A stretch of DNA of 64,000 nt from a virus. The notes beneath the pieces were generated by a model. That model saw only the letters and a list, made by a program, of their open reading frames with translations, ran no database searches and had not been told where the DNA came from. A program made the translations under genes and the position numbers. Below are positions 24,444 through 59,351 of the stretch, piece by piece (positions within the stretch are counted from its first letter, which is position 1; every line of letters starts with the position of its first letter). The DNA lies in the IMG/VR virus record IMGVR_UViG_3300020469_004256, positions 5,590 through 69,589 of that record; one strand, 5' to 3'.

Positions 24444-25160
24444 TCACTTTTTTAATAAAGGAACAACATATTTTCCGCCTACATCCCAAGGGCCTAGTAC
24501 CAATCTACTCACATCATCATGATGATTGTCATGATATCCTTCACCCCACATAATCATATTACTAACAAAATCAATTGTTGTTGGCTCAGCTTCTTTGCCA
24601 TTGTGTCCAAAATAATTTAAGTATGTTAAGAAAAACCATGCGTGAGTAAAATTAAATGCCATCCATACAACTAACCAAGGATTGATCAAAGCATGAAGTA
24701 TTACTGCTCCTGTGTATAGTTTCCAGTAATGTTTGGTTGTGAACACTGCATCTCGTTGTCTTAAAAATTTTCTCATTGGAATAGCACCACTTGGAGTTCT
24801 GTATCTGCCCAACAACATACGCCACCATCCCAGATCTTTTGGAGAGTGTGTGTCTAATTCTGTGTCAGTATACTTGTGATGATTTAAGTGTGCAACAACA
24901 TTATGTCCTGGTGGACCAACTGCACTTATTACTGTTGATGCTAATAATATTTTTCTGCCAACCCAACTTGGCTCAAACTGGTAATGACATAGCCACCTAT
25001 GGTAACATATCTGAGCAAGATTGTTTGTGATGTGTCCTGCTATTGTAAAAATTAATGCAAGTTCCCATGAACCTCCCATAATAAAATATGCTGGAATACC
25101 AATTACTGCAACGATAAACATCACAACAATTTTTAATGTTACCCAATCAATATACTTCAT
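24444..25160 (-). CDS. membrane fatty-acid desaturase (divergent delta-9 type)
   Basis: His boxes HRWLCH, HLNHH, GEGYHDNHH; DTHSP. Confidence 0.9.
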   Translation of the reverse strand: MKYIDWVTLKIVVMFIVAVIGIPAYFIMGGSWELALIFTIAGHITNNLAQICYHRWLCHYQFEPSWVGRKILLASTVISAVGPPGHNVVAHLNHHKYTDTELDTHSPKDLGWWRMLLGRYRTPSGAIPMRKFLRQRDAVFTTKHYWKLYTGAVILHALINPWLVVWMAFNFTHAWFFLTYLNYFGHNGKEAEPTTIDFVSNMIMWGEGYHDNHHDDVSRLVLGPWDVGGKYVVPLLKK

Positions 25161-25164
25161 ATCA

Positions 25165-25959
25165 CTAATCTTTCAACATTGATGCTTTGATTGGTCTTGA
25201 CATTTTAAGTTTTTTTGGTTCAAGTTCTAACAATTTAATAAACCAACCGCCTACATCAAACTCCCACCATTTGTGTTTGAAACTAGGATTTTTAGGATTG
25301 GCATGGTGGTTGTTATGCCATCCTTCACCCCACATTAATATACCAAGTGCTGGAATATTTCTTGAGTTATCAGTTGTTTCAAAGTTTCGATATCCAAACA
25401 TATGAGTCAATGTGTTAATAAAAGATCCTGCGTTCCATAAAACCATTGCAGGAAATAGATAGGCCGCTACTAACAACATTGGATCAATCCATAACCATAT
25501 GCCTGCTATAGTACCATGGATTAAAAAATACCATCTATGAGCAAACGCATGAAAATTATCTCTAATCAAATGCAAAGCATATTTTGGACTAGGTGTTTCA
25601 AACATACTCAACCATTGTACTTTTAAAAATCCTTTGTAGTTTGGCGAGTGTGGATCATCTTCTTTATCTGTATGCACATGATGTTCTCGGTGTATTGCTA
25701 CCCAACCAATTGTTGATCCTGTTAGTCCATACATTCCTGCCATTGAACCAAAGTAATGAAACCATTTAGGTGCATTCCAACTCCTGTGTGATAAAAGCCT
25801 ATGGAAAGTCATAGTCATTCCAAAACATCCTGTAATGAAATATACAAAGAATCCTATTAGCCAATGATACCAATGTCCATACACAATCATTGGAATTATG
25901 CTTAGATGTGCTATAACTTGGCTAAAAAATAATGCCCATTTAAAATAATTTTGTTTCAT
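25165..25959 (-). CDS. membrane fatty-acid desaturase (DesC/OLE1-like delta-9)
   Basis: HRLLSH, HREHH, DDPHSP, GEGWHNNHH, WWEFD. Confidence 0.95.
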   Translation of the reverse strand: MKQNYFKWALFFSQVIAHLSIIPMIVYGHWYHWLIGFFVYFITGCFGMTMTFHRLLSHRSWNAPKWFHYFGSMAGMYGLTGSTIGWVAIHREHHVHTDKEDDPHSPNYKGFLKVQWLSMFETPSPKYALHLIRDNFHAFAHRWYFLIHGTIAGIWLWIDPMLLVAAYLFPAMVLWNAGSFINTLTHMFGYRNFETTDNSRNIPALGILMWGEGWHNNHHANPKNPSFKHKWWEFDVGGWFIKLLELEPKKLKMSRPIKASMLKD

Positions 25960-32828: not shown

Positions 32829-33875
32829 TTAATTTTTGTCTTCAACTTTTTTGTTTTTGTATATTCCTTTTAACCCACATGCCCTAATGCATTTACGTAG
32901 ATGTTTAGGATGTGATGCATACCATCTTGATTTTAAAGACTTGTAAAATTCTGTTTGTAATATATCGCTGATTGAATGTTTGTTAAGATCGTTAAAATCT
33001 CTATCGTTGGTTTGTGTAATTTGTTCATACATATGAATTGAATCACCGTACAAGAAACAACAAGGCCACAGTGTCATATCAGCCGCTACAAAGCATTCTG
33101 GTTCTTCGTAATGTTGACAAGAAAGTGTGTGAACTATATCATCAACTACTTTAGGATCTTTAGATGTATAAATTTCTTTTAGTTTTTGTAAATCATTGTG
33201 TGGAAGTTTTTTAGAATTGTTTAATTTTACTTCTTCAACTACTGTAACACTTTTTTGTTTTTCATCTTTAACAACTAATGGTTTTCTTGGCTTGTGTTTT
33301 TTATTTTTGTTGAATTCATTTCTACCACTAGTTCTTCTAATAAATCTCATACCAAGTTCATTTGCTAAACTTTTTGCATCTTCGTAATCATCTTCATTAT
33401 GATCAAATGGTATAAAAACCCAATTGGCTTTGCCACCTGCACCCATGTATGCTCTCATATTTCTTTCTAGTGTTGACCAATTTACATTTACTCTGTAGAT
33501 GTGGTTAGTATCTTTAAATCCATCTACACTGAAGTCAACATACAAGTTTTCTAGTTTGGCTAACTTTGCCCACCATTCTGCATTTTGATACCCACCATTT
33601 GTGCTTAAATTTATTCTTCCACCAAAGTTAGAAATATATTCAGCAATTTCAAAACATTCGTTATTGAGTATAGGATCACCTAATACTCCGCACAGTTTAA
33701 ATTCTTTGTTATCACAAGATTCTCGTGTTGGAAAAATTTGTTTGATGTTTTCAAATGTAAGTTCGTTATTGCCTCTCAATTTCATGCCCATTTCAGTTCT
33801 AGCACACAGAGGACATTCTGCATTACAGTTAGCAGTTATTTCTAGTTCATATTTTTGGATATGTTTTTCTAACAT
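32829..33875 (-). CDS. radical SAM protein (likely start MLEKH), paralogue of 2663..3778
   Basis: CNAECPLC, GVLGDP, STNGG, NHIYRVNVNW, WPCC, CIRAC. Confidence 0.9.
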   Translation of the reverse strand: MLEKHIQKYELEITANCNAECPLCARTEMGMKLRGNNELTFENIKQIFPTRESCDNKEFKLCGVLGDPILNNECFEIAEYISNFGGRINLSTNGGYQNAEWWAKLAKLENLYVDFSVDGFKDTNHIYRVNVNWSTLERNMRAYMGAGGKANWVFIPFDHNEDDYEDAKSLANELGMRFIRRTSGRNEFNKNKKHKPRKPLVVKDEKQKSVTVVEEVKLNNSKKLPHNDLQKLKEIYTSKDPKVVDDIVHTLSCQHYEEPECFVAADMTLWPCCFLYGDSIHMYEQITQTNDRDFNDLNKHSISDILQTEFYKSLKSRWYASHPKHLRKCIRACGLKGIYKNKKVEDKN

Positions 33876-33879
33876 TGCT

Positions 33880-34131
33880 TTACTTTCGTAATTTTGCATC
33901 ACCATGGTAGCATTCTGGTGGTTGCGTGTACTGTGGTGAAAGTGTAGCATCGTATTCAAATCTAGTATTACAATACAAACAAACTTTATAATCTTTATCA
34001 CCCATTGTCATATAAACATGAGGATGATCATTTGGTGGTTCAGCACCTATACAAACAAAACCTTTGACACCAATCTTTATTACAGGTACTCCTATATCAT
34101 TTTTGTATGACGGTGTTGCGTTGGTATCCAT
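33880..34131 (-). CDS. zf-CHCC zinc-finger protein (NDUFS6-like)
   Basis: CIGAEPPNDHPHVY...CLYC. Confidence 0.88.
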   Translation of the reverse strand: MDTNATPSYKNDIGVPVIKIGVKGFVCIGAEPPNDHPHVYMTMGDKDYKVCLYCNTRFEYDATLSPQYTQPPECYHGDAKLRK

Positions 34132-44485: not shown

Positions 44486-46339
44486 TTATCCAAAGGTTAC
44501 ACCGCTATCAATTATAACTCCACCTGTAAGAGTCATATTTACTGAAGCATCATTTACTGTTAATGAGTATGCTCTGTCTTCATATTCAAATCCATTAGTT
44601 GATCTTACTGTAAAATTATACGTACCACTTGATGTAGAATCTGGTGCACCATCTAATAATCCTGCAGTGTCTAAACTCATGCCACTTGGCAGTGATCCTG
44701 ATTGTATTGTGTGTGTTACTGTGTGCAACTGCTCTGATGCTGAATTTCTAAATGTTGCTGATAAATCAAAACTGTTGTTTGCTTCTTCATATATTGATGT
44801 CAACGCACCTGCACCTGTAGACCAAGTTATGGTGTAATCTTGATAAGGTTGGAAAGCACGGTTTTGGTTTGACAATGCATATCCACTAACTGCACTATCA
44901 ATATCTCCATTGCCTTGAATAAATGCTTTTGCTGATTCTTGATTTGCTTTTGTTGATACTGCTCCAAACGTACTTGAATCTGTATCAAGATAACAAGCAA
45001 CATAACCTGCTACCTGTGGCGATGCCATAGAAGTTCCTTGTAGTTTGTTCACGTAATAACCTGTTGATCCAATCTGTACTGCTGAACCACTGTTGATGTA
45101 TGAACTGTGAATTCTTGTGCCTGGTGCCCACACAGTCAATGGTTCTCCATAATTTGAAAATGATGCTTTTGCAAGAGTGGTATCGTGTGCCATAACTGAG
45201 ATATCATGTCTTGTTGATGTTCCAAATTCTATCCAAGCATTTGACGGTGACTGACCGTTGTTGGTTGGTTGAAAATATATTGTGTTGTTGTAACTACCAC
45301 CTGGTGGAGCACCTGGTGTACCTGATCTTGAACCTGTACCATATGTGTTTGGATCGTATGCTGATGCATCTTCTTTGTAAATTTTTTCTCCTGCGCCATA
45401 TCCCATATCGTTGCCACTATCAAAGAAATACCAATATCCTGAATTCCATCCACTTTCATTTGAATCATAAACTCTCTCATTGTCATTACCTGCTGAACAT
45501 ACTGTAACAATTCCTGCGTTGTTCATGTTTTTAACAAGTGTGTCGTACGAACTTGATCTTGCCATGTGATATTGACTGCTTGGTATTGCATTTGGATCCC
45601 ATGATGCTGTGGTATAAAAATATGAAGGATGATTTGGTGGATAGTATGTTGATGAGGCCCAGCTCATGTTTACCACTGTTGGTCTACCTGTGCCTTTTGA
45701 ATTGTGCCATGATGTGATGTATCCCATTGAACTTGCTGAGTATCCATAATTGACACTGCCTAAATTTGTTGTGAAAGAATAAATTTGTGCATCTCTGGCC
45801 CAACCTTGTGTTCTACCTGCTACTGTGCCTGCAACGTGTGTGCCATGACCGTTTGAGTCTGTGTAGAAACTTGCACCTTGTGATCCTCCCCAACTGATTT
45901 GATTTATTCTTGATGATGAGTTAGAAGCAAGGTCATTGAATTCTGGGTGTCCTACCACAATGCCGGTGTCCATAATAACACAGTCAACATTTGCACCTGT
46001 TTGTGAATATGTAAAGTTGGTTGAAAGTGTTGTGTTGTTTTGAGTCATTTGTGCAAGTCCCCAATTGTGATGTGTCGTGCTTACAGTCGATGACGTATCT
46101 GGATTTATAGTTGTTGATGCATCAATATCAAATTTTAACTTCTTTTCATAGTCTTCACTGTTTGCACCGGCCACTTTATCTGATGCCAACCATTTGTCAA
46201 ACTGATCTCTATTGGCCATTTCTACCCAAATGATTTCAGGAATAGAACTATCTGTGATTGTTATACCATCTGCTTCAAGTTCAGTAATTAACTGTTCTTT
46301 TGTAATAATATCTAAGTTTGGTACAATTAGTGCTTTCAT
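44486..46339 (-). CDS. subtilisin-like S8 serine protease with C-terminal putative Ig domain
   Basis: Triad IMDTG / GHGTHVAG / GTSMASP; SAGN oxyanion; GSLPSGMSL..G.YNFTVR Ig motif. Confidence 0.92.
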   Translation of the reverse strand: MKALIVPNLDIITKEQLITELEADGITITDSSIPEIIWVEMANRDQFDKWLASDKVAGANSEDYEKKLKFDIDASTTINPDTSSTVSTTHHNWGLAQMTQNNTTLSTNFTYSQTGANVDCVIMDTGIVVGHPEFNDLASNSSSRINQISWGGSQGASFYTDSNGHGTHVAGTVAGRTQGWARDAQIYSFTTNLGSVNYGYSASSMGYITSWHNSKGTGRPTVVNMSWASSTYYPPNHPSYFYTTASWDPNAIPSSQYHMARSSSYDTLVKNMNNAGIVTVCSAGNDNERVYDSNESGWNSGYWYFFDSGNDMGYGAGEKIYKEDASAYDPNTYGTGSRSGTPGAPPGGSYNNTIYFQPTNNGQSPSNAWIEFGTSTRHDISVMAHDTTLAKASFSNYGEPLTVWAPGTRIHSSYINSGSAVQIGSTGYYVNKLQGTSMASPQVAGYVACYLDTDSSTFGAVSTKANQESAKAFIQGNGDIDSAVSGYALSNQNRAFQPYQDYTITWSTGAGALTSIYEEANNSFDLSATFRNSASEQLHTVTHTIQSGSLPSGMSLDTAGLLDGAPDSTSSGTYNFTVRSTNGFEYEDRAYSLTVNDASVNMTLTGGVIIDSGVTFG

Positions 46340-47151: not shown

Positions 47152-47604
47152 CTAAATTAAACCTGAAAAAGTACCCTGTTTATTGATTGTAAGGCATTGT
47201 TTACGGTTGTCTTCTTTTGATTTATATGACACATGCACCCATCCACTACGTGGGTCTTTGCCATTATAAAACTCTAATATCAATTGGTCGAAGTCTAAAT
47301 TGTTTTTGATCCACTCTGCTAAATCTCTATTGCTGAGTGTTGGAACTTCTACGTCTGCCGCTTCACCAAAGCAATGCTGTGATTTTTTAGAACCACCGAT
47401 TGCTGTGTTTAGTTTCTTACATCTATAACCTGAATTGATTACCGTTGGACCAAACTTTTCTCTAATAGGTTGTAGTATTTCTTCTGCCAGTGTTTGCATT
47501 TTTGCAACAACATCAGGATCTTTTGGCAAGTTGTCAATACCTTTTCTTAATGCTGTTTGGCTTTTACAAAGTTCTGCCAGTGTAAAGTTATCAGTGAGTT
47601 GCAT
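47152..47604 (-). CDS. peptidase M15A (endolysin-like)
   Basis: NFTLAEL, SGYRC, SQH..GEAAD, DQLILE, WVHVS. Confidence 0.9.
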   Translation of the reverse strand: MQLTDNFTLAELCKSQTALRKGIDNLPKDPDVVAKMQTLAEEILQPIREKFGPTVINSGYRCKKLNTAIGGSKKSQHCFGEAADVEVPTLSNRDLAEWIKNNLDFDQLILEFYNGKDPRSGWVHVSYKSKEDNRKQCLTINKQGTFSGLI

Positions 47605-49864: not shown

Positions 49865-50269
49865 CTATATGTCGCCTTTTTTTCTGTTTTCACTTTTGGC
49901 CACATCAAATTCACCTTCTGGATATCTGGCCATAAGTTTTTCTTTATTCATAGTAATTACTTTGTTAGGATCAACACCAAGTGCCATACAACCTTGTGTC
50001 CAATACCACATAACATCACCAAGTTCTTTAGTCATATGTGTTTTGGTTTCTTCTGTTAGTGGCTTTCCTTGAAACACTAGTTTTTTTACAATTTCTGTAA
50101 ACTCTCCTGATTCTGCTGATAATCCCATTGCCGCAGTTAGTAATCTTGGAACATCTCCATTTCCTAAATCATCTAATCTTTGTCTAAATGCTGTTGAATC
50201 TTTAGATTCGTTGCTGGTAACTTTATCCACAAACTGTGAATATTCTTTTAAATCAATCTCTGACATCAT
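49865..50269 (-). CDS. MazG-like NTP pyrophosphohydrolase
   Basis: GLSAESGEFTEIVKK...ELGDVMWY...NKEKL.ARYP. Confidence 0.9.
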   Translation of the reverse strand: MMSEIDLKEYSQFVDKVTSNESKDSTAFRQRLDDLGNGDVPRLLTAAMGLSAESGEFTEIVKKLVFQGKPLTEETKTHMTKELGDVMWYWTQGCMALGVDPNKVITMNKEKLMARYPEGEFDVAKSENRKKGDI

Positions 50270-50486
50270 CTTCCTCCATTTGCTCTTCTACTTTGTCCAC
50301 AAGTTCTTTTACATCCTGTTGCCATAAAATTCTATCTTGTGGTATTGCTTTAATCAGTTCTTTAACTGTTTTTTTTAGTTCGTTGTACCTGTACTTCATA
50401 TTAGCTGATTCATTTTTATATTCATTTGCCATATATTCCGCTGTGTATCTCATTTGTGCTTCTTTGTTTTGCCAATCTTCTGACAT
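50253..50486 (-). CDS. hypothetical coiled-coil protein
   Basis: ORF track; coupled to neighbours. Confidence 0.65.
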   Translation of the reverse strand: MSEDWQNKEAQMRYTAEYMANEYKNESANMKYRYNELKKTVKELIKAIPQDRILWQQDVKELVDKVEEQMEEDDVRD

Positions 50487-52012
50487 TATACAGTTTCTAA
50501 CACCTTTTCCAACTCTTCTAATTTTACATCATTTGGATCACCAAGATCGCCATCACCCATTGAGCTTTGTGTATCAACATCAAATAGATTACTGAAGTTG
50601 TTACCAGACTGTCCAGTCCATCTCACACCTCTAATATCATGTAAGAATGCTTGGTTGTCTTCTAGCATCTGCATAGGCGTTTCTGACTTGAAGAAATCTT
50701 CAATGAAAGCATTAAAGTAAAGTACATTTCTAGGACACCAGTCACTAAATTCTGCTGACGTTTCTTTTTGTTTCACTTTACGCCAGTGTCTGTAATCTGG
50801 CTTGTGTATAGATGATTCAATGTCAGTGATTTGATTTGCTTTTTGTACAATCTTAATGTGTTGATTAACATTATGACCCATCATTAGTGCATAAGCAAAT
50901 GAATCCCAAGATGTTTTACCTTCTTTGCCTACTTTGTTTAAATCACCAGGTCCATACCAACAAATGTCGCCAATAGTAAGCCTTCTGCCAATCTCCGACT
51001 CCCATGGAAACGGTATAGTAGAAAGTTTTAATGCTTTACTATCAGTTGCTTTGTCCATAATATATGACCATCGCTTGTTAGTATGAACCGGTGAAGTATA
51101 TACCAAACCATGTGCTGTTGCCACAAACGCACTCGCACTATCATAAGATACTGTCAGGTTTGGATTTACATGCTCTCTTAATTGTCTTTGAATTGATGTT
51201 AAGAAACAAGCCCAATCTAATTTACTTGTACCAAGGAAGTGTATCCAATCCCTGTTGTCGAGTAATTTAGAATCTCGCAATATGATTAGGCGTCGGAGAG
51301 CCATTGTCATATCACACATATTGTTTCCACCAAACGCCCAACCTTCAAATGGAAAATGCTTCACAGCATCATACCATACATCTCCAGTTGGAATATCAAA
51401 GCCTTGGAGCACGTTTAGAAACTTGGTATGACCAAGTCTATTTTTTAAGAAATATTCATTGTTGTGTACTGTGCCTGAAATACAATCACCATACGATTTT
51501 AATCCTGTCTTAGGGCTGTGTGTGGCATCACTTGCCCAACTAGGAATATCTAACACCATTGACCAATCTGCTGTAAGTTCTAACCAATGTAGAATCTTAT
51601 CACGCATTGTGTTTGCAGATTTGCCTTTGAAGTTTTCCCAATCAAATTTTAGTATGCCTTTACCAATTTGATATCCACCACTGTCACCTACAATGATAGT
51701 ATCTTTTTTATTTCTTGTGTGAAACATTGATTCATTCACAATAGATTTTTCAACATCTAAATGAGCATGGCCGGCTGAGTATAAACCGTATTTGTAATTA
51801 AAGTAACCTTTTTCTTTGTTAAGAAAATTCAGTCCTTCAATACCATTTTCAAATCCTTTTGGGATTCTATCATCTGGCACAAACTGTTTGTCAGTTCCGC
51901 CTGTTTGTTGTTGCTTACTTACATAAGTTTGATAAAAGCCACTAACTGCTGGTAAAAACACAGCATAGTCTTTGTGGCTGGCTGTTAGATCTTCTCCGTA
52001 TGGTTTTGACAC
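50486..52012 (-). CDS. dpdA: TGT-fold guanine transglycosylase, DpdA-like (7-deazaguanine insertion into DNA)
   Basis: DSGGYQ, VLDIP, VLQG, WAFGG, IHFLG, SYDSAS. Lacks the CxCxxC Zn motif of tRNA Tgt. Sits between the clamp and queD-like genes. Confidence 0.8.
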   Translation of the reverse strand: MSKPYGEDLTASHKDYAVFLPAVSGFYQTYVSKQQQTGGTDKQFVPDDRIPKGFENGIEGLNFLNKEKGYFNYKYGLYSAGHAHLDVEKSIVNESMFHTRNKKDTIIVGDSGGYQIGKGILKFDWENFKGKSANTMRDKILHWLELTADWSMVLDIPSWASDATHSPKTGLKSYGDCISGTVHNNEYFLKNRLGHTKFLNVLQGFDIPTGDVWYDAVKHFPFEGWAFGGNNMCDMTMALRRLIILRDSKLLDNRDWIHFLGTSKLDWACFLTSIQRQLREHVNPNLTVSYDSASAFVATAHGLVYTSPVHTNKRWSYIMDKATDSKALKLSTIPFPWESEIGRRLTIGDICWYGPGDLNKVGKEGKTSWDSFAYALMMGHNVNQHIKIVQKANQITDIESSIHKPDYRHWRKVKQKETSAEFSDWCPRNVLYFNAFIEDFFKSETPMQMLEDNQAFLHDIRGVRWTGQSGNNFSNLFDVDTQSSMGDGDLGDPNDVKLEELEKVLETV

Positions 52013-52755
52013 TATTGACTCCTAGCAGGTAGGATGTAATCATAAGTTGCTGTGCCAGAATCAATTGATATCTGCATAGCACCTTGATCACTAAATGACA
52101 TACTTGCTTGTGAAGTATCACTTAATTTCAAAATACTCAATACCTGTGCTAGTGGCCATGCCCAACCTTTAGTTAGTTTGCCTTGCACGTTTTGAGCAAA
52201 TGGAATTTCAACTCTGTCATTTGCGCCATCTCCTATATAAAACTTTAGTGTATCACCATCTGTCTTTGCAACAAATGTTGGCTCAAAGCCACCCATGATA
52301 CTGTTAAAGTAAGTCAAGTCTTTAATGTTTTGTTGTGTTGGCTGTACTGTAATATCCCATTCAACACCTTTGAACTTGATTGTTTTTAATTGTTCTTCAA
52401 TTAGAGAACTAACCATGAATCTATAGTTTGCAGTATAACCACCTGGCGATGTAAATTTTAGCTCTTCTGCTGTTTCTACACCATCTCTTGTGTTTGTCAT
52501 GACTTCAATGTTTGCACCATCTTTGCCATATGCTTCATAATTCAAATAGCCTGATAGTACACCAAGTCTACCCATTCCAATTAATCCTGGAACGTTGTCT
52601 AAGTTATTTTTTAATTTGCCTTTTAGAACCACTGTTCTATCATCATCCATTGCTTCAATACTTGTGCCTTCATCTGTGCTTTCAAGTTTTACTGCTTGAA
52701 TAAAGCCCAACGAATGCGTATGCTTTACAATGTCTAGTAATACATCTTTTAACAT
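52012..52755 (-). CDS. DNA polymerase sliding clamp (gp45/PCNA-like)
   Basis: 247 aa, two-domain alpha/beta pattern ending YDYILPA; located near polB. Confidence 0.7.
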   Translation of the reverse strand: MLKDVLLDIVKHTHSLGFIQAVKLESTDEGTSIEAMDDDRTVVLKGKLKNNLDNVPGLIGMGRLGVLSGYLNYEAYGKDGANIEVMTNTRDGVETAEELKFTSPGGYTANYRFMVSSLIEEQLKTIKFKGVEWDITVQPTQQNIKDLTYFNSIMGGFEPTFVAKTDGDTLKFYIGDGANDRVEIPFAQNVQGKLTKGWAWPLAQVLSILKLSDTSQASMSFSDQGAMQISIDSGTATYDYILPARSQ

Positions 52756-52824
52756 ATTTTGTTACCTCCGACGTTTGTTTATTTTTACTAATATAACATG
52801 TATTTAGGCAAGTTGTCAACTATT

Positions 52825-54834
52825 TTATTCTCCATGTATAATAATATGATACCTGTTTTGATTACTTAGGTTCCTAACTAAATGATTATAACCTGTTCTT
52901 ATTTGAAATGCTTTTCCTGGCTTCCAAGGAACTTGGCCTAAATATAGATATTTGTCATTCCAAAAGTGCATTTCACAGTTTTGTGGATTGTTGATTGACA
53001 TATTTAAATTCCACCCATCTGTGTGATATTTTCCATCTGGAGTATCGTTGTGTAAACAGATATATCCTCCAGGCTCTAATTTCATGATTCTTATTCTGTA
53101 ATAATTGCTGATCTTGTTGATTTGATTCTTTTGAAAATATTCAACTATGTTTGGAATATGTTGTTTTGCATAATCAACAAATTTGTAAGGTGTTTCTTCA
53201 TTGCTGTTATATCCATAATCTCCATAATCGTTTGTTTTGTTCCAATCGATCCCATGCAACACAAAACTACTCCATCCAGGATGTTTATCACTTCTATGCT
53301 TAACAAATAGATTATGTTTTTCTAGATTTTCAATTTCATTTAAAAACACATCAACATCAAAAGATTGTACTTGAATTTCTTTACAATAATCATCGGTTGA
53401 TTCTGGTATACTGTTTGGACCGTTACTCCATTTTGTTGTCGTATAAGGCGATTGGCCTGCCCATACTATTTTTTGATTAGCAGAAAATATATCAGATAAA
53501 AAAACTTCAAATGATTTATTATCATAAAAATAAACACCGTCAAATGTAAAAATATTACTAAACCATAACATTGGTTGATTCGCTTGTTTAATATGCTCAT
53601 ACATCTGCGTTGTTTCTTTATTACTAATCATAGACACACATTCAAATTCATATGTATAATTTTTTATTTTTTCCCAGTTTTCATCAACAGCAATTTTTAT
53701 TTCTTTCCATTTGTTGTTGCATTCTTGAATATTTCTTTCTGACCAAGTCTTGTCAATATTAGCATCAGTGTTTTCATACATTTCAATCCAGTCTTGCCAT
53801 GTAGCATCTTTGTTAGGATCATAGTTTTTTAAAAACCAACGTTGAAAATTAATTGCTATGTTGTTTATGTCAATCATTAATACTTTTGTATTGTCATTAA
53901 AATTATATGTAGAAAGATATTGCCACGGCAAATGTCCAGAAGCAACTCCAATAAATGAATCATAAACTATATGTGGAAGACTTGTTGTCATATCTTCATT
54001 ATTATATCCAAACCATTTAGTGTGATTATCAGTTTGAGAATACATTTTATTAGCACGTAAAAAATCATACTGTGTTTCAGACATGTGGTGTTTGTTGGTT
54101 TGTATTGTTTGTAAAGACTGTCCTAGATAATATTCAAAATTTTTAGAGTTTTCGTTATAATAAGAATATTTTTTTGCTTTACGTATTTTATTATTAACGT
54201 TTTTAATTTCCCAATCTTTTTTCATAGCATACTGTATTAAATCTTCACCAAACCCATCACTGCTTGTTTTATGTATGATACGATCACTTTTTGATAGTAT
54301 GTGTTTCCAAGGATCTCTCCATATTTTTAAAGGAGTATAATCATCGTGAACATTTTCATCACTTCTGGTAACTGGTATCCATTTATCTGTGCTGTATTCT
54401 ATAGAATTGTTAAACACAAAGTCATCTTTTTTTAAATTATCAATTACATCTTTTGATAATAACAGCATTTGATCATGCAGTGTAAAAAGGTTATTGTTAT
54501 CTTTGATTCCTTGATGTAAAATGTGTCCAAATATTTTTGTAGGTTTAATTAAAAGCTCTTTTAGTCCTTCAATAAAAAGTTTAGTATCTTCAAGTACTAC
54601 TCCTACCGAAAACATAAGAATATGTGTGTAATCATATTCATTAGATTGATGTATGATGTCATTTAAATCGTGTGTGATAAAAAAGTTTTGTGCATTTAAT
54701 TCTAAAGTTTCATCACCATGACAAAGTTGCCCAACCGAGATGCGAGTTGCTGTCATCATTTTTTGTTTTAGTTCTTCACTTATGTTAGAATAGCGAGAAG
54801 AATTATCCCAAATGACTCGCAAAACTTTATACAT
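52825..54834 (-). CDS. multidomain protein with C-terminal Asp/Asn beta-hydroxylase-like domain
   Basis: WSSFVLHG..RIRIMKLEPGGYICLHND..HLVRN..RYHIIIHG; the N-terminal ~470 aa are unassigned. Confidence 0.75.
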   Translation of the reverse strand: MYKVLRVIWDNSSRYSNISEELKQKMMTATRISVGQLCHGDETLELNAQNFFITHDLNDIIHQSNEYDYTHILMFSVGVVLEDTKLFIEGLKELLIKPTKIFGHILHQGIKDNNNLFTLHDQMLLLSKDVIDNLKKDDFVFNNSIEYSTDKWIPVTRSDENVHDDYTPLKIWRDPWKHILSKSDRIIHKTSSDGFGEDLIQYAMKKDWEIKNVNNKIRKAKKYSYYNENSKNFEYYLGQSLQTIQTNKHHMSETQYDFLRANKMYSQTDNHTKWFGYNNEDMTTSLPHIVYDSFIGVASGHLPWQYLSTYNFNDNTKVLMIDINNIAINFQRWFLKNYDPNKDATWQDWIEMYENTDANIDKTWSERNIQECNNKWKEIKIAVDENWEKIKNYTYEFECVSMISNKETTQMYEHIKQANQPMLWFSNIFTFDGVYFYDNKSFEVFLSDIFSANQKIVWAGQSPYTTTKWSNGPNSIPESTDDYCKEIQVQSFDVDVFLNEIENLEKHNLFVKHRSDKHPGWSSFVLHGIDWNKTNDYGDYGYNSNEETPYKFVDYAKQHIPNIVEYFQKNQINKISNYYRIRIMKLEPGGYICLHNDTPDGKYHTDGWNLNMSINNPQNCEMHFWNDKYLYLGQVPWKPGKAFQIRTGYNHLVRNLSNQNRYHIIIHGE

Positions 54835-54847
54835 TACACCTGTCTTC

Positions 54848-55615
54848 CTATGTGATAGAATTTGTATATTCTACAGCAATTTTTATATCAATCCATTCAG
54901 TTGGTTTTAGTGTTGGCTTCCAGCCTAATTTTTTTAATTCAGAATTGTCTGCTGTGTTGTTATCTGCTTCTGCATCCTGACCTTGTTGTGTTGGCACATT
55001 ATATCCTGCGTGTTTAACTATGTCAGATACTGTGTATCCTTGACCAGTTCCAACTTCGTAAGTTGCATTTCTATTTTTAGTTCCTTGTTCAACAAATATC
55101 ATTATTGCTGAAACAACATCTTCTACATATATAAGATCTCTTACATGATCCGTAGCAAATTTAACTGTGCCATTTGCGATTCTTGACATCAGCATTGTAT
55201 CTCTGGCTCCGTCACCAAATACTGTTGTAAATCTCAATCCAACTTGTCCAGGATGTGCTACTGCCTCCATTGCTTTTTTGCTTGTACCATATGGCGACTT
55301 CCACCATGCATGTACACAAGAGCTTGATGCATATACAACAGGAATATTATTTTTATGACATAAGTCAAATATATTTTTACTATATTCTACATTGGTTGTC
55401 CAATACAATTCTGGCTCTTTTAAACTGCGTCTTACATCTGCTATTGCGGCCAAGTGTACCACAAAGTCAACATCTGCTGGTATTGTGGCAGAAGAAAAGT
55501 CTTTGATATCTTTGCCATGGGCTCTATCCCATTCAATTACTTCATGCCGACCTGCTAGTCGTTGAACTAGATGTTTACCAATAAATCCTGTACTGCCTGT
55601 TACAATTATTTTCAT
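54848..55615 (-). CDS. NAD-dependent nucleotide-sugar epimerase/dehydratase
   Basis: TGSTGFIG, HLAA, ASS, YGTSK, RDLIYVEDV. Confidence 0.92.
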   Translation of the reverse strand: MKIIVTGSTGFIGKHLVQRLAGRHEVIEWDRAHGKDIKDFSSATIPADVDFVVHLAAIADVRRSLKEPELYWTTNVEYSKNIFDLCHKNNIPVVYASSSCVHAWWKSPYGTSKKAMEAVAHPGQVGLRFTTVFGDGARDTMLMSRIANGTVKFATDHVRDLIYVEDVVSAIMIFVEQGTKNRNATYEVGTGQGYTVSDIVKHAGYNVPTQQGQDAEADNNTADNSELKKLGWKPTLKPTEWIDIKIAVEYTNSIT

Positions 55616-58326
55616 GCTGACTCAAATAAACTTTCAAATACTGTTGATGTTTTTGTTGATTCTAAATCCCAACCAAGTTCACTCATTAAGTTACTGACTT
55701 TTTGATCAATGATTGATTGTTCCATACCATCATGATCAAATGGCAATTCTTTAAACCATTTTGGAATATTTAATTCATCAATTGGATATGCAATAGATGT
55801 AAAGTTCATTGGGTTTGCTTTTAATTTACACACAATAACCTTTTGTCCATCCATAATTGGCAATGAATATAAATCTTTGTAAGCACTACGCATTGAATTC
55901 CAATTAATACTTGCTCTTACGTGTCCTGGCATCACTGGTTTTTTGATCTTGCCATTTGCACCACCATTAGCCATACGTGATGTAGCACGTTTGTATTTTT
56001 CAATATCTTGTACATATTTGGTTAAGTTGTTTACACGTTTTGGAGTGCCTTTTTCCCAACCAGGTCTGTCTGCGAACTTGCGTTTGAATTCTTGTATTGC
56101 TGTTAATATTTCTTTCTTGTCAACACCTGTTAAAACTTGTAATAATATGTCTGATAAAAAGTCTTGTACAAAGTCAGGAGTATCAGATCTTTTCAAATCA
56201 AGACCCATTGCTTTTAGTTTACCTGGCTTGTCAACATCTTGCCTGTTGCCTTCTAAATCATATATCAATGCCGCATATCTTTTCTTTGTGATAAACAATC
56301 CTTTTGATGCAACCATTTCTCTACCACCTTTGATAATCTCACCATTTTCACGTGGCACATTAGTTGCTTTCATCATAAATGGCGGAAATGATTTGTTCAC
56401 TTCTTCTGCTATGCTGTCATACAATTCAATAACACTGTCTTTAGTCCATGGTATTTTACCACTTTTAACATCTTCTTTAACCATTGGATATGCTGAAAAG
56501 TATACAGAGTCTGTATCACCATATATGATTGACTTGCCTACGTGATCATATTCGCCTGTCATTATTTGATTTGTGATTGCACCCATGTGTTTTGTGATTG
56601 TTCTACCTGTAAGTGTGACTGACTGTCCTATACGTTGATCAAAGAATCTACAGCCTGGATTAAGAATAGCACCATACAAACTGTTCAAGTTAATCTTTTT
56701 AACAAGTTGTCGTTTATCCCAAAATTCTATTTGTTCTTTATCGCCACTTGCAATTGCTTCACGCATTTTACCTTGCAATACTTTTCTTTCTGCAAACCAT
56801 GTTTCTAATAGTCCAGGAATAACTGCTTTTGTGGTTGTGTTGAATATTGTGCCATTTGCTGATAAGCACCAACCTTGATTCTGATGAAATACAATTGCAT
56901 ATACTTCTGCTCCACTCATTTGTTCTGTTGTTCCATCTTCAAAGTCAACAATAATTTCTACTCCGCGATCTTGTTCCATCACTGCTGTGTACTCAATTGT
57001 ACCAAACATACCTTCCCAAGCATCTGCGGCTGACTTCTTTTCATTGTGGATTTTATTGTTAATATATTTTTCTGTGTGCGTTGGTCTTAACTGTCCAACT
57101 ATAGTTTCCGGACCCATGTTCAAGCATCTAATCACACTAGGATACAGTGAATTAATATCAATTGATGCAATCCAGTCATGCAAACCTTTTTTAGGCTTTG
57201 CCACATAGGCTCCAACTGCCGCACCTGATGAGTGTGGTTCTCTGTATGGTCTATTTGGAATAATAAGTCCACGTTTGTGTGCTTCATTTACAATTGCTTG
57301 TTCTGTTTGTGCAACTGCACCCATTGTGGTTTGTAGCAATACAGTATTAGAATGTGCTAACACATTTGCTAGATCAATAAATTTTAATTTGTCATCAAGT
57401 TTTGATAGTAGTGCAACGTCTTGTCTTGAATATGCAATAAACTTTTCAAAGTCTTCATTGTAAAGTTGATCAAGCGTTCCTTCATATGGAACTTTCTTTT
57501 CATTAACTTCATACTCACCAATTGCATCAAGTCTATATGAATGCATTTCGTGATATGTGTATTTTCTATACAGTTCTAAATAATCTAAATGTACACGACC
57601 AAAGAAATCAAATGTTTGTTGTTCATTGCCAAACTTTGTAAACATTCTTTCACGTGGATAAAGATCCCATAAACTAAAACGTCTAACATCATCCTTGCTT
57701 AACACCATTTCAGTTCTGTTTACAATGTATGGAATATCAAAACCTTCTGAGTTCCAACCACTTAATATATCTGCATCTTCAATTAGATGTAAAAATGTGT
57801 TTAGTAGTTGAGCTTCTGTTTCACACAACACAGTATTGTCAAACTTTTTAGAAATTTCATCTGCCATTTCAAATGGCATATCTTTTGGAGCAAGGCATAG
57901 TGTGATTAAACTATCTAACCAATTAAGATGTACACTGATTGCTGTGATACGTTGATGTGGATCATTTGGTCTTGCAAATCCACGATCCTTGTCAAAGTCT
58001 ACCTCAATATCAAACAGTGCTACATGTAGTTTTGGGGCTTCTTTTTCAATATAGTTTTCTTCTAAACATCTAAACACAGGATTGAGATCTGCTTCATACA
58101 GTCTTTGTCCTTCATACATTTTCTTTTCTTTTTGAAATGATTTGTTGTTTAACGTTTCAAACTTACTTAATGGACGATCATGTATCGACGTGTATTCTCC
58201 ATCATTATCTTCATAATAGAATCTATAAGTTGTTGGAAACGTTTTGTATATACGTTTGCCATCAATACGTTCTACTATATTGATTTGATCTCTATCTCTA
58301 TTTAAATATGCGTCTACGTAACTCAT
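55612..58326 (-). CDS. family B DNA polymerase with 3'-5' exonuclease
   Basis: FDIE, WNSEGFDIPY, DINSLYPS, KINLNSLYG, YGDTDS, KKRYA. Confidence 0.97.
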   Translation of the reverse strand: MSYVDAYLNRDRDQINIVERIDGKRIYKTFPTTYRFYYEDNDGEYTSIHDRPLSKFETLNNKSFQKEKKMYEGQRLYEADLNPVFRCLEENYIEKEAPKLHVALFDIEVDFDKDRGFARPNDPHQRITAISVHLNWLDSLITLCLAPKDMPFEMADEISKKFDNTVLCETEAQLLNTFLHLIEDADILSGWNSEGFDIPYIVNRTEMVLSKDDVRRFSLWDLYPRERMFTKFGNEQQTFDFFGRVHLDYLELYRKYTYHEMHSYRLDAIGEYEVNEKKVPYEGTLDQLYNEDFEKFIAYSRQDVALLSKLDDKLKFIDLANVLAHSNTVLLQTTMGAVAQTEQAIVNEAHKRGLIIPNRPYREPHSSGAAVGAYVAKPKKGLHDWIASIDINSLYPSVIRCLNMGPETIVGQLRPTHTEKYINNKIHNEKKSAADAWEGMFGTIEYTAVMEQDRGVEIIVDFEDGTTEQMSGAEVYAIVFHQNQGWCLSANGTIFNTTTKAVIPGLLETWFAERKVLQGKMREAIASGDKEQIEFWDKRQLVKKINLNSLYGAILNPGCRFFDQRIGQSVTLTGRTITKHMGAITNQIMTGEYDHVGKSIIYGDTDSVYFSAYPMVKEDVKSGKIPWTKDSVIELYDSIAEEVNKSFPPFMMKATNVPRENGEIIKGGREMVASKGLFITKKRYAALIYDLEGNRQDVDKPGKLKAMGLDLKRSDTPDFVQDFLSDILLQVLTGVDKKEILTAIQEFKRKFADRPGWEKGTPKRVNNLTKYVQDIEKYKRATSRMANGGANGKIKKPVMPGHVRASINWNSMRSAYKDLYSLPIMDGQKVIVCKLKANPMNFTSIAYPIDELNIPKWFKELPFDHDGMEQSIIDQKVSNLMSELGWDLESTKTSTVFESLFESA

Positions 58327-59351
58327 TCAACATACACCTGGCCAAATTTATTGCTAATAAAAGTTTTCCAATCAACATCTTCTTGTTTGATAAAACCTTC
58401 ACCTGTAAGTTCATCCCTACAGTATGATACTATATTAGCACAAACTCCAGATGCTGTCGACCTCTGAATTGCACTCATACCATCTTTTCCAAAGATATTT
58501 TTTTGGTATGACTTTTCTAACAATTTACCGTTCTTAATTCCAATCACTTTGATCAACATAACCACAACATCTTCTGTAGTATATGGAACTGTTTGATCAA
58601 GCAAGTCACCTATTTTGTCTTTGTTGCTTTTTAAGTTTAAATCTTGTAATAAGAAATTCATTTTATCTCTGTGTCCGGGATATCTAATCGTTTTGTAACT
58701 TAAAGTTTTAACTTTACCATCAAACGTTTCACACATTGTTGCTACTCCACCTGAAGTATTAAATGCTTCATATCTTCTGCCATCGATGTATATTCTTTCT
58801 ACTCCGTCCAATGGTGGTATCTTTAGTTTCTTGCCATCTGCAATTACATCACACAAATTACAGTACTCGTTTATCAAACCATTTGTTGACCATGTTAGAT
58901 AATAACTCATTTCGTTTGAAGGATAACGTGGTAATGCACCAACTCTCATTTGTACGTCATGTGCTTCGTCAAAATCTCTAATTAAATCACTTCCAATAAT
59001 GTTTACTGCACCAGGAGCCAAACCACACTGAGGCATCATAAAAGTTTTGGTATCTAAATTTTTAATATAGTCAGTTACTTCAACATCTTCTGTTAAATCA
59101 AAATATGCTACTCCCATTTTTGAAGCCACATTAGCAATTAATTTATTTAAATAATAAGGTGCCGCAGAACATACAGCATCTTTGTTTGTTAAAAAATGTT
59201 CTAGTTGTTTTTCGTCAGTTGCATCTAGTGAAACAACTCCATTACTTGCTATTGAATCTCCTATTACAACATTATAATTTTCTGATCGTAGTAAACTAGC
59301 GATAACTCTACCAATCTTTCCGTTTCCTATAACTGCTACATTATTTTTCAT
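58323..59351 (-). CDS. saccharopine dehydrogenase-like / lysine 6-dehydrogenase family oxidoreductase
   Basis: GNGKIG, YFDLTED, QCGLAPG, RVGALP, TWS..GLINEY, FNTSGG, TIRYPGH. Confidence 0.9.
   Translation of the reverse strand: MKNNVAVIGNGKIGRVIASLLRSENYNVVIGDSIASNGVVSLDATDEKQLEHFLTNKDAVCSAAPYYLNKLIANVASKMGVAYFDLTEDVEVTDYIKNLDTKTFMMPQCGLAPGAVNIIGSDLIRDFDEAHDVQMRVGALPRYPSNEMSYYLTWSTNGLINEYCNLCDVIADGKKLKIPPLDGVERIYIDGRRYEAFNTSGGVATMCETFDGKVKTLSYKTIRYPGHRDKMNFLLQDLNLKSNKDKIGDLLDQTVPYTTEDVVVMLIKVIGIKNGKLLEKSYQKNIFGKDGMSAIQRSTASGVCANIVSYCRDELTGEGFIKQEDVDWKTFISNKFGQVYVE

Follow-up and report, generated by a model that had tools for sequence, protein, structure and literature searches.

A DpdA-like enzyme of a jumbo phage carries the same docking peptide as the phage DNA polymerase and thus probably rides the sliding clamp, modifying DNA while it is copied. 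Computation on sequences and structural models supports well that this enzyme is tethered to the phage clamp, with base exchange coupled to replication, and we consider the explanation as a whole, a diverged member of the tRNA-guanine transglycosylase (TGT) superfamily that acts on DNA and docks on the clamp through a PIP-like tail, to be probable. Such tethering was put forward in the original prediction, drawn from the 64,000-nucleotide stretch analyzed here (the window), on account of an overlap between the clamp and enzyme genes and of similar motifs in the enzyme and polymerase tails. What we observed comprises the folds, the alignment of catalytic residues, the conservation of the motif, the gene order, and the covariation of motif and clamp pocket.

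Table 1. Features of the replication module, with positions in the window
Feature	Position	Strand	Evidence or remarks
Family B DNA polymerase (PolB), T4 gp43-type, 904 aa	55612..58326	-	Pfam DNA_pol_B 1.7e-37, DNA_pol_B_exo1 5.6e-20; phrog_262 4.7e-195
PolB tail motif TVFESLFE, residues 895-902	55621..55644	-	Translation confirmed
NAD-dependent epimerase/dehydratase, 255 aa	54848..55615	-	Pfam Epimerase 9.7e-29
669-aa protein, C-terminal Asp/Asn beta-hydroxylase-like (cupin oxygenase) domain	52825..54834	-	Pfam PF05118 2e-06, residues 500-666
PCNA/gp45-type sliding clamp subunit, 247 aa	52012..52755	-	AF2 model, Foldseek; phrog_12062
TGT-fold transglycosylase ("DpdA-like"), 508 aa	50486..52012	-	AF2, Foldseek, VIA, hhalign
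Enzyme tail motif NNFSNLFD, residues 471-478	50579..50602	-	Translation confirmed
Acidic C-terminal extension of the enzyme	50489..50578	-	Second conserved element D495, L498, L501, E502; helix 496-507
MazG-like nucleotide pyrophosphohydrolase	49865..50269	-	Pfam MazG 1.6e-07; phrog_229 7.9e-51

The genes belong to the replication module of a jumbo phage, are encoded on the minus strand, and run in the order PolB, clamp, and transglycosylase (Table 1). By tblastn, the PolB has its nearest cultured relatives in the jumbo phages Phosso (51%) and Atu_ph07 (46%). The three genes appeared together and in this order in 82 of 85 related viral loci, the enzyme gene directly following the clamp gene in most of them, and among further loci the clamp was on the locus in 61 of 63. 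The epimerase between PolB and clamp is confined to this lineage (present in loci L004 to L008, absent from L009 to L088), and the 669-aa protein, which also sits there, had a homologue at the same position only in L006 (63%) among the compared loci. Downstream of the enzyme, after a 77-aa ORF, the MazG-like gene keeps its position in L004 to L008; the deazaguanine clusters of Cellulophaga phage phi19:2 and, according to the accessible part of PMC10516641, of phiST also contain a MazG. The overlap of the enzyme gene with the clamp stop codon is there as predicted: the clamp ORF ends in CAA TAG and the GTG start, which comes from a mechanical ORF call, uses its G (TAGTG), a single shared base at 52012. 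This one-base overlap was seen again in L004 to L008. Across 68 distinct clamp/enzyme junctions in related loci, it occurred in 14, an overlap of any length in 16, and a distance within 8 nt in 31.

That the gene upstream of the enzyme encodes a clamp, another element of the original prediction, was borne out by its AF2 model (pLDDT 92.4, pTM 0.89), for which the Foldseek matches listed were all PCNA (best among them, E 3.6e-11, TM 0.69). Its homologues in phages PAC2 and Phosso carry a PCNA or sliding clamp annotation, while the phrog_12062 family that it matches is labeled as function unknown, and a gp44-type clamp loader gene is present in a complete relative (G001). Within the clamp family, V42, F128, and G225 do not vary, and conservation reaches at least 90% at G130, P243, and A244.

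By fold and sequence profile, the enzyme is a highly diverged member of the TGT superfamily that looks active judging by its conserved residues. Its AF2 model (pLDDT 91.9) has a catalytic barrel at residues ca. 14 to 435, a disordered linker at 465 to 486, and a C-terminal helix at 496 to 507. Foldseek matched it to the TGT of Z. mobilis (E 1.5e-7), and VIA gave Z scores of 18.4 to 19.4 over ca. 300 aligned residues with bacterial, human, and archaeal TGTs (19.4 and 307 residues for that of T. maritima). The hhalign comparison with E. coli Tgt (probability 87%, E 3.7e-6) aligned the DSGG[YF]Q, LD.P/FDE, and QG elements and a third Asp, placing D110, D155, and D291 of the enzyme on three Asp of Tgt. 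Across 73 diverse family members, no variation is seen at D110, S111, G113, H258, and D291, and D155 is kept in at least 90%. No match to the enzyme was found among Pfam, PHROG, NCBIfam, or PADLOC models, and Pfam TGT touched only 3 of the 73 members, weakly (best E 0.0045), so that membership of the superfamily is visible only at the level of folds and profile-profile comparison.

Gene context suggests that DNA is modified with deazaguanine. All four of the larger related genomes (G001 to G004) encode FolE, QueD, and QueE, a QueE gene lies near the enzyme homologue in PA5oct, and genes for QueF, a queuosine-biosynthesis protein, and FolE lie near that of Vibrio phage 2.275.O. The DNA of PA5oct behaves as G-modified, and the study in question proposes that the G of a GA and/or GG motif carries the modification (PMC12191111, accessible part). 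These data, together with the conservation of the Tgt-aligned Asp residues and of the QG and GG elements, count against an enzyme that docks on the clamp but performs something other than 7-deazaguanine insertion, be it base excision, exchange of another base, or tRNA transglycosylation. We regard such an activity as unlikely, even if the window protein is unrecognized by described DpdA, TGT, or defence HMMs, a search of PDB sequences with the A2 profile yields no TGT, the zinc subdomain falls outside the hhalign alignment (which ends at residue 305), QueC-like matches in G001 are weak only, and que genes are absent from the window and from its 69.6-kb contig, itself 19% complete by the CheckV estimate. 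For the tRNA version, moreover, a clamp tether makes little sense.

The label "DpdA-like" reflects fold, catalytic residues, and context and not membership of a described DpdA subfamily (bDpdA and DpdA1-4; Hutinet 2019 and 2023). Like this described set of DNA-guanine transglycosylases (PMC10516641, accessible part), the enzyme belongs to the TGT superfamily, is phage encoded, and has FolE, QueD, and QueE in its genomes and a MazG nearby, as in phiST and phi19:2. Unlike them, it goes unrecognized by Pfam TGT, DUF6610, and the PADLOC models. It is about twice as long as the presumed DpdA3 of phi19:2 (259 aa; hhalign probability 66% over 84 columns), and it keeps the canonical DSGGYQ, a DSGG[FY]-type coding pattern not being found in CP220. 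In PMC10516641, the word "clamp" has 0 occurrences.

The case for docking begins with the protein tails. PolB ends in TVFESLFESA, which matches the NNFSNLFD of the enzyme tail, and the family consensus is the PIP-like [Q/N]-x-x-F-x-x-L-F-[D/E]. The conservation expected for the FxxLF core was found, since F..[LIM]F occurs in the last 60 residues of 92 of the 120 best homologues; when these tails were shuffled 200 times with composition preserved, the pattern turned up in 3.0 on average and in 8 at most. Over 56 homologues, F477 is invariant while its flanks vary, with conservation of at least 90% at N471, F473, and L476. In the AF2 model, the motif lies in the disordered linker (pLDDT <50 for residues 465 to 486), unpacked against the barrel, and in enzyme forms of ca. 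480 aa it becomes the extreme C terminus (...NNFSSLFEGA). The tail is acidic as described, with 10 Asp/Glu and 2 Lys/Arg in the 31 residues past LF; for this extension, including its helix, no confident clamp contacts were listed in the complex model (see below).

In related loci, the pattern ..h..[LMFIVH]F lies at the very C terminus in 75 of the 76 distinct PolB tails, and 58 of the 76 distinct enzyme tails match it as well. A further 14 enzyme tails retain the LF core when read by eye (11 within the picked 7-mer and 3 elsewhere in the tail), giving an [L/M/F]F core in 72 of 76. The four without any LF-type core (L086, L125, L139, and L150, with L135 and L145 similar) represent a subclade whose tail ends in ...GMDADN..M....DF and whose clamp, where found, is ca. 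3 kb away. The motif is absent from most of the more distant family members: among representatives, F..[LIM]F was found in 14 of 43 at ranks 1 to 50, 3 of 31 at ranks 51 to 100, and 2 of 38 at ranks 101 to 150. Distant cultured relatives keep the shared pattern: the PolB and enzyme tails read ...HFDSLFGW and ...SFNSLFDVD in PA5oct, ...NNTDLFDW and ...NNNDLFGW (both at the C terminus) in Vibrio phage 2.275.O, and ...TTFNDLFTF and ...IVEGLF (C terminus) in Phosso, where the enzyme gene does not adjoin the clamp gene. Within a 328-kb complete relative, F..[LMF]F appears in the last 50 residues of 7 of 433 non-overlapping ORFs, of which only PolB and the enzyme are replication linked (the remaining five comprise a lipase-like protein, a baseplate wedge protein, and three small unannotated ORFs). 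On the 69.6-kb contig, no long minus-strand gene apart from PolB and the enzyme shows the pattern; four further matches are ORFs of 63 to 70 aa, of which three lie on the plus strand.

The two tails also vary together. The 7-mers of PolB and enzyme from the same genome had a BLOSUM score of 17.5 versus 15.3 (sd 0.45) in permuted pairs, a value reached by 0 of 10,000 permutations, with kinship between genomes ignored. FF replaces LF in PolB in 2 of 58 pairs; the enzyme shows FF in the same two pairs and in 0 of the remaining 56. Only these genomes, L018 and L165, have Leu at clamp residue 226, a position that among 106 distinct clamps is Ala in 101, Val in 3, and Leu in 2; both also have Ala at 131. 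The two clamps share 39.5% identity, and their nearest neighbors (73% and 58% identity) have Ala226. Motif and pocket residue 226 thus covary in two unrelated lineages, a result that rests on two independent events. This, the likeness within genomes, the excess over shuffled tails, the invariance of F477 amid variable flanks, the terminal position of the motif in short forms, and its unpacked state in the model make it very improbable that the resemblance is meaningless, i.e., an aromatic-rich patch kept for solubility, folding, or autoinhibition whose polymerase likeness is a coincidence or a relic of tail duplication. The absence of the motif from some subclades and the HF, MF, IF, or VF enzyme variants found beside LF polymerases are what such a reading would explain.

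When the clamp was modeled with the enzyme tail, the motif was placed in the canonical clamp pocket, with an ipSAE of 0.64 versus 0.00 for the best of three controls. This score expresses model confidence; 58 of 80 solved complexes came up to this mark, against 2 of 110 mismatched pairs, a calibration that is only rough for custom alignments and three clamp copies. Runs shared at least 53% of contacts, with a partner pLDDT of at least 46. The confident interface involves enzyme residues 470 to 473 and 475 to 481 and clamp residues 40 to 41, 43, 124 to 131, 224 to 226, 241, and 243 to 246, with clamp residue 226 placed against L476 of the enzyme (expected error, 1.2 A). Since complexes of PIP peptides with PCNA are abundant among solved structures, passing this comparison may reflect likeness, and the model may put any PIP-like peptide on any PCNA-like protein.

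This point, the shortness of the motif, docking that is predicted only, and the second conserved acidic helix of the enzyme tail, without an assigned partner, would fit a peptide that binds another common partner (clamp loader, single-strand-binding protein, helicase, or host beta clamp). The host beta clamp motif is of the QL[SD]LF type, loosely like the peptide shared by PolB and enzyme. We judge another partner to be quite unlikely, since residue 226 covaries with the motif in two independent lineages, the modeled contacts include those clamp columns that are most conserved (the invariant V42, F128, and G225 and also G130, P243, and A244), and the enzyme gene so often follows the clamp gene. 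Also against it, the homologous polymerase tail of T4 and RB69 binds gp45.

For the preferred reading, clamp docking, we propose that the enzyme, like DpdA, most likely has phage DNA as its substrate, in which guanine would be exchanged for a 7-deazaguanine derivative. Its peptide probably enters the hydrophobic pocket between the two clamp domains, under the interdomain connector loop, and the enzyme would thereby be tethered to clamps loaded onto freshly synthesized DNA. With three pockets per trimeric clamp, a single ring could hold polymerase and enzyme at once, or the enzyme may instead use clamps left behind the fork. In both cases, base exchange would be tied to replication temporally and spatially, with a possible gain in processivity or in completeness of modification.

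In T4 and RB69, the C-terminal tail of the gp43 polymerase docks on the gp45 clamp. The arrangement described here shares with them a family B polymerase with a short hydrophobic end peptide, a two-domain PCNA-like clamp, and a (predicted) interdomain pocket; it differs in that the same peptide is also found in a non-polymerase enzyme encoded next to the clamp, internally within a disordered linker. The motif, which reads [N/Q]xxFxxLF, is closer to the PIP box than to the T4 tail. Among PCNA clients with a PIP box, DNMT1, UNG2, and archaeal UDG act behind the fork to modify or edit DNA. As in these, a base-modifying or base-removing enzyme with a short motif in a disordered region would be tethered to the clamp, tying upkeep of the mark to replication; unlike them, the enzyme here is a TGT-fold base exchanger in a bacteriophage with its own clamp. 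The window motif is without the PIP glutamine (G-N-N instead), and many homologues read Q-N-x-F-x-x-L-F.

Coupling of phage DNA modification to the replisome has been considered before. The T4 alpha-glucosyltransferase is said, from older in vitro data, to bind gp45 and modify DNA concomitantly with replication, and the 2025 preprint that recounts this saw no co-purification in vitro or in vivo with C-terminally His-tagged enzymes (bioRxiv 10.64898/2025.12.06.692756, accessible part). The idea of a phage DNA-modification enzyme acting on the clamp during replication is common to both; the case made here differs in coming from a conserved motif and covariation in sequences, a polymerase-type motif not being mentioned in the accessible part of that preprint. 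Some phage A-family DNA polymerases are fused to uracil-DNA glycosylase (PMC13697223, accessible part), which likewise couples a base-level enzyme to the replicase in phages with modified genomes, by gene fusion and excision instead of the clamp-docking peptide and exchange proposed here.

The genes analyzed here lie on the minus strand, which holds nearly all long ORFs of the window, in DNA of low G+C content (about 0.30 to 0.40). The record is a 69.6-kb viral contig with a CheckV completeness estimate of 19%, and the cultured phages closest to it in PolB similarity are two jumbo phages, Phosso (51%) and Atu_ph07 (46%), and the Rak2/121Q-like group (ca. 42%). The epimerase, the 669-aa gene and the saccharopine-dehydrogenase-family gene may together constitute an additional module for modification or metabolism. 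Other cargo comprises a tandem fatty-acid-desaturase-family pair, a radical SAM/SPASM enzyme, a subtilase with an Ig-like domain and an M15 peptidase (24444-25959, 32829-34001, 44486-46339 and 47152-47604). A MazG is also part of the deazaguanine cluster in two Cellulophaga phages, phi19:2 (gp039) and, according to PMC10516641, phiST.

Features of the replication gene neighborhood in the window
Feature	Position	Strand	Basis or remark
MazG-like pyrophosphohydrolase	49865-50269	-	Downstream of the enzyme gene
77-aa ORF	Between the enzyme gene and the MazG-like gene	-	
508-aa ORF, predicted TGT-fold transglycosylase	50486-52012	-	Fold and profile-profile comparison
247-aa ORF, predicted sliding clamp	52012-52755	-	Fold comparison
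669-aa protein, C-terminal Asp/Asn beta-hydroxylase-like oxygenase domain	52825-54834	-	
NAD-dependent epimerase	54848-55615	-	
Family B DNA polymerase (PolB), 904 aa	55612-58326	-	Pfam DNA_pol_B 1.7e-37; phrog_262 4.7e-195
Saccharopine-dehydrogenase-family gene	58323-59351		Overlaps the PolB start

The 508-aa enzyme had no match in Pfam, PHROGs, NCBIfam or PADLOC and did not reach the cut-offs of Pfam PF01702 or the NCBIfam TGT models, and no TGT was found among PDB sequences by phmmer or with A2, a profile of its family. PF01702 matched 3 of 73 family members, weakly (best E value of 0.0045), and TIGR00432 and TIGR00449 matched two distant members, far under the cut-off, so that the enzyme is linked to TGT by fold and profile-profile comparison only. 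Its AlphaFold2 model, built with 73 diverse homologues, had a pLDDT of 91.9, with residues 465 to 486 below 50, and the top 50 Foldseek matches were all Zymomonas TGT (best E value of 1.5e-7, probability 1.00). Structural alignment with VIA to bacterial, human and archaeal TGTs gave Z scores of 18.4 to 19.4 with ca. 300 residues aligned; the best match had a Z score of 19.4 and an rmsd of 4.6 over 307 residues. Comparison with E. coli Tgt by hhalign (probability 87%, E value of 3.7e-6), in an alignment that stops at residue 305, paired GDSGGYQ with TDSGGFQ, LDIP with FDEC (VLDIPS/IFDECT), LQG with IQG, HFLG with YLMG and YDSAS with FDCVM (SYDSAS/MFDCVM). The catalytic and substrate aspartates of E. 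coli Tgt are D89, D143 and D264, together with the DSGGFQ motif, and their counterparts in the enzyme are D110, D155 and D291; the 73 diverse members show no variation at D110 and D291 and at least 90% conservation at D155. Modeled fold and aligned residues identify the protein as a predicted TGT-fold transglycosylase with an intact-looking active site. Its family is large: of 8,000 candidates scored, more than 6,000 had E ≤ 0.001, and 940 representatives from a set clustered at 50% identity matched. Among cultured phages, Phosso has a homologue 28% identical to the enzyme, Vibrio phage 2.275.O one of 31% and the PA5oct group one of 41%.

The enzyme matched no PADLOC model, nor Pfam DUF6610, and the A2 profile had no match in Campylobacter phage CP220 or Cellulophaga phage phi19:2. 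PF01702 and a back-translated DSGG[FY] pattern each found nothing in CP220, and neither did a regular expression run over its first 50 kb. The subfamily said to give complete G replacement is DpdA3 (Hutinet et al., 2023, PMC10516641). As its representative we took gp042 of phi19:2, a 259-aa protein whose gene is flanked by the CDG genes and that of the polymerase, and which was assigned to DpdA3 from position alone; hhalign between the enzyme and this presumed DpdA3 was weak (66% probability, 84 columns). These subfamily comparisons, which covered PADLOC, DUF6610, CP220 and phi19:2, placed the family in no named DpdA subfamily.

The adjacent 247-aa ORF had no match in Pfam or among PDB sequences, and in PHROGs it matched one function-unknown family. 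Its AlphaFold2 model (47 homologues, pLDDT of 92.4, pTM of 0.89) is a clamp fold, as the original prediction had assumed: all matches listed by Foldseek against the PDB were PCNA, from yeast, human, archaea and ASFV (best E value of 3.6e-11, TM score of 0.69). On this modeled structure we regard the protein as a PCNA/gp45-type sliding clamp with two topologically similar domains per subunit. The homologue in phage PAC2 was deposited as "proliferating cell nuclear antigen" and that in Phosso as "sliding clamp". Among the window ORFs scanned, no clamp loader was identified; a gp44-type loader (Gp44_lid, DNA_pol3_delta2) is encoded by G001, a complete relative (a 328-kb record with terminal repeats) with an enzyme 90% identical to that of the window. 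The clamp alignment shows no variation at V42, F128 or G225 and at least 90% conservation at G130, P243 and A244. The clamp homologue of PA5oct (L001 6915-7661, 42.5% identity) is annotated as a "structural protein" from virion ESI-MS/MS, which suggests that it is carried in, or copurifies with, the particles. We also considered Phosso gp439, a 240-aa "virion structural protein" encoded upstream of the Phosso enzyme homologue, as a second clamp and rejected it, the clamp HMM having no match.

The overlap reported in the original prediction is present: the clamp gene ends in CAA TAG and the GTG start codon of the enzyme shares the G of the stop, a one-base overlap at 52012. Among 68 distinct clamp/enzyme junctions, 31 are within 8 nt and 14 have a one-base overlap, while most of the remaining ones have a gap of ca. 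350 nt. The same-strand order PolB, clamp, enzyme was found in 82 of the 85 IMG/VR loci retrieved with the diverse alignment, and the other three run out upstream; of 63 further loci, which partly come from the same contigs, 61 include a clamp and 53 include PolB. Most relatives have PolB followed directly by the clamp. Among the loci compared, an epimerase between them was seen, besides the window, only in its close relatives L004 to L008, and the 669-aa gene, again besides the window, only in L006. In Phosso (L003 7995-12196), the enzyme gene is far from the clamp gene and directly upstream of DNA primase and DnaB-like helicase genes, and the protein still ends in ...IVEGLF. These surroundings are another replisome neighborhood.

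The original prediction also held that the acidic tail of the enzyme echoes the end of the polymerase, and this observation is confirmed. NNFSNLFD occupies residues 471 to 478 of the 508-aa protein and lies inside the low-pLDDT disordered segment, TVFESLFE occupies residues 895 to 902 of PolB (904 aa), and the 31 residues past the LF of the enzyme include 10 acidic and 2 basic ones. The motif is conserved among homologues: within the last 60 residues of the 120 closest, F..[LIM]F was found in 92, where 200 shuffles gave 3.0 on average and 8 at most, and N-x-F-x-x-L-F-[D/E] is kept within an otherwise variable linker. An alignment of 56 sequences has F477 in all of them and at least 90% conservation at N471, F473 and L476. 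Shorter forms of the enzyme (ca. 480 aa) end in ...NNFSSLFEGA, with the motif at the extreme C terminus like the polymerase tail. The PIP consensus is Q-x-x-h-x-x-a-a; the window motif (G-N-N-F-S-N-L-F) has no Q and fits the h-x-x-L-F spacing, and many enzyme homologues have Q-N-x-F-x-x-L-F.

Farther out in the family the signal decreases. Among 112 representatives with at least 400 aa, out of the best 150 listed at 50% identity, F..[LIM]F was present in 19 (2.9 expected) and [LM]F within the last ten residues in 27 (5.7 expected). Nearer members of the family account for most of this signal, and the more distant half is mostly without the motif. An IMG/VR context search for these distant motif-less members (alignment A4) recovered mostly the same clade. 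At related loci, the PolB tails read ...DNTFNKLFDFE or ...NNTFGSLFSFE and those of the enzyme ...QNTFGSLFEVE or ...NNTFSNLFDHD. From 134 loci with both genes we obtained 96 distinct tail pairs and 76 distinct 7-mer pairs, in which the pattern ..h..[LMFIVH]F fits 75 PolB and 58 enzyme 7-mers. Eleven of the 18 enzyme misfits end in LF, three more have an LF visible in the tail beyond the picked 7-mer, and four have none. In one enzyme (L086), KLM stands where others have the LF core. A subclade (L125, L135, L139, L145 and L150) has the enzyme tail ...GMDADN..M....DF, without LF, and polymerases that keep ...F(D/G)x(L/M)FSF; its clamp gene, where found, is ca. 3 kb upstream of the enzyme gene. 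Either the tether was lost in this subclade or a different docking peptide is used.

Past the LF motif, residues 479 to 508 (window 50489-50578) contain a second conserved element, with D495, L498, L501 (invariant) and E502, which often reads DLxNP(D/E)DxxLRxLE and is modeled as a helix (496 to 507). In the complex model described below, this element makes no confident contact with the clamp, and it may serve another partner; no other ORF of G001 carries the pattern. A 198-aa Rv2179c-like 3'-5' exonuclease of the same genome (G001:C1:313855-314451, L185 9855-10451) ends in ...NTVKLF-COOH, which makes it a possible further clamp client. The only other G001 motif to look convincing initially, FGDLFEIV in a 1,316-aa protein, was treated as chance, since its carrier is a baseplate wedge protein.

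The two tails resemble each other more within a genome than between genomes. Same-genome PolB and enzyme 7-mers had a BLOSUM score of 17.5, compared with 15.3 (standard deviation of 0.45) when permuted, and an identity of 3.41 compared with 3.00; none of 10,000 permutations reached the observed similarity, in a statistic that ignores genome kinship. At the Leu position of the motif, Phe occurs in the PolB member of 2 of 58 pairs; the enzyme member carries Phe in the same two pairs and in no other. The same two genomes (L018 and L165) are the only ones with Leu226 among 106 distinct clamps, 101 having Ala and three Val, and both of their clamps have Ala at position 131. Their nearest neighbors (73% and 58% identity) have Ala226 with Val or Ile at 131, and the neighbors checked, L067 and L153, have LF motifs. 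Since the L018 and L165 clamps are just 39.5% identical to each other and each has nearest neighbors with Ala226, the change at 226 arose twice. The Val226 clamps (L111, L161 and Vibrio phage 2.275.O) accompany the oddest motifs; in 2.275.O, the polymerase ends in ...NNTDLFDW-COOH and the enzyme in ...NNNDLFGW-COOH.

Clamp-peptide complex prediction, proposed as a check along with the original claim, pointed to a site that includes residue 226. Three clamp copies modeled with enzyme residues 455 to 508, each with its own alignment, gave ipSAE values of 0.65, 0.64 and 0.63, compared with 0.00 in all three controls; among solved complexes, 58 of 80 attain this score mark, as do 2 of 110 mismatched pairs, and the calibration holds only roughly for this three-clamp, own-alignment design. 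The runs agreed in at least 53% of contacts, with a partner pLDDT of at least 46. The confident interface joins enzyme residues 470 to 473 and 475 to 481 to clamp residues 40, 41, 43, 124 to 131 (the connector loop), 224 to 226, 241 and 243 to 246, part of which belongs to the C-terminal strand of the clamp (241 to 246), and the contact positions include the most conserved clamp columns. Residue 226 faces L476 in the model (expected error, 1.2 Å). The motif is thereby predicted to dock in the interdomain hydrophobic pocket of the clamp. The model supports binding, favoring it without showing it, and its passing score may partly reflect likeness, because PIP-peptide/PCNA complexes are well represented among solved structures.

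From genomic context, the enzyme putatively acts on DNA with a deazaguanine. FolE, QueD and QueE are encoded in all four larger related viral genomes, G001 among them, and QueC (PF06508) gave weak partial matches in G001; no que genes were found on the window's own contig (19% complete). Near the enzyme homologue there is a QueE gene in PA5oct, and there are genes for QueF, a queuosine-biosynthesis protein and FolE in Vibrio phage 2.275.O. In G001 (G001:C1:11185-19058, L169), the FolE and QueE genes adjoin the clamp loader, and between them are encoded a cytidylyltransferase-like protein, an FkbM methyltransferase, a phosphoribosyltransferase, a HIT protein and a redoxin, which may be a pathway for further base tailoring. 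PA5oct DNA shows restriction resistance, from which its authors inferred a modified G; the available part of that study (PMC12191111) names QueE and a PTPS, and DpdA appears nowhere in it. This resistance lends indirect support to a putative exchange of guanine for 7-deazaguanine in DNA. Iyer et al. (2021) credit PA5oct with "a deazaguanine synthesis/incorporation system" (PMC7824862), so its transglycosylase may already have been noticed there.

Searches of the open-access literature for "DpdA" with "sliding clamp" returned papers in which DpdA occurs just once each, and those for "DpdA" with "PCNA" only unrelated work. Among the matches listed, none for "7-deazaguanine" with "replisome" dealt with clamp-tethered exchange, as far as their available text goes, and no PCNA paper contained "deazaguanine" or "DpdA"; the word "clamp" has no occurrence in the available part of PMC10516641. 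The nearest idea to a clamp-riding phage DNA-modifying enzyme is T4 alpha-glucosyltransferase, which was proposed to bind gp45. That binding was not reproduced with C-terminally tagged enzymes, according to a 2025 preprint (bioRxiv 10.64898/2025.12.06.692756). With the idea now contested for T4, the present case would be its clearest so far at the level of sequence.

Taken as a prediction from sequences and models, the tethering of the enzyme to the clamp is supported. We judged the enzyme to be both a predicted PIP-like clamp client and a putative DNA transglycosylase of DpdA-like type, belonging to a large and unnamed TGT clade found in jumbo phages. A broader reading, which we hold tentatively and with less than even confidence, is that this clade is a replisome-resident base-exchange system, riding on the PCNA-like clamp through a polymerase-mimicking peptide and rewriting the guanines of nascent DNA. 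Enzyme and polymerase would possibly share one clamp ring, and the guanines would be exchanged as the fork passes. If true, this would explain high or complete genome-wide replacement by a "post-replicative" transglycosylase without an ATPase partner such as DpdB, and the second conserved tail helix would contact a further replisome component.

7-Deazaguanine modifications of DNA shield phages from restriction and CRISPR, and their levels span <0.1% to 100% between DpdA subfamilies. They are held to enter DNA after replication, through DpdA (PMC10516641). A clamp tether would be a testable answer, for one large clade, to how a base-by-base exchanger covers hundreds of kilobases per infection cycle, and it bears on why modification levels differ between subfamilies. 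The covarying pair of clamp A226 and the LF/FF motif offers a ready-made specificity swap, and the family probably also includes the transglycosylase so far missing from therapeutic phages of the PA5oct type.
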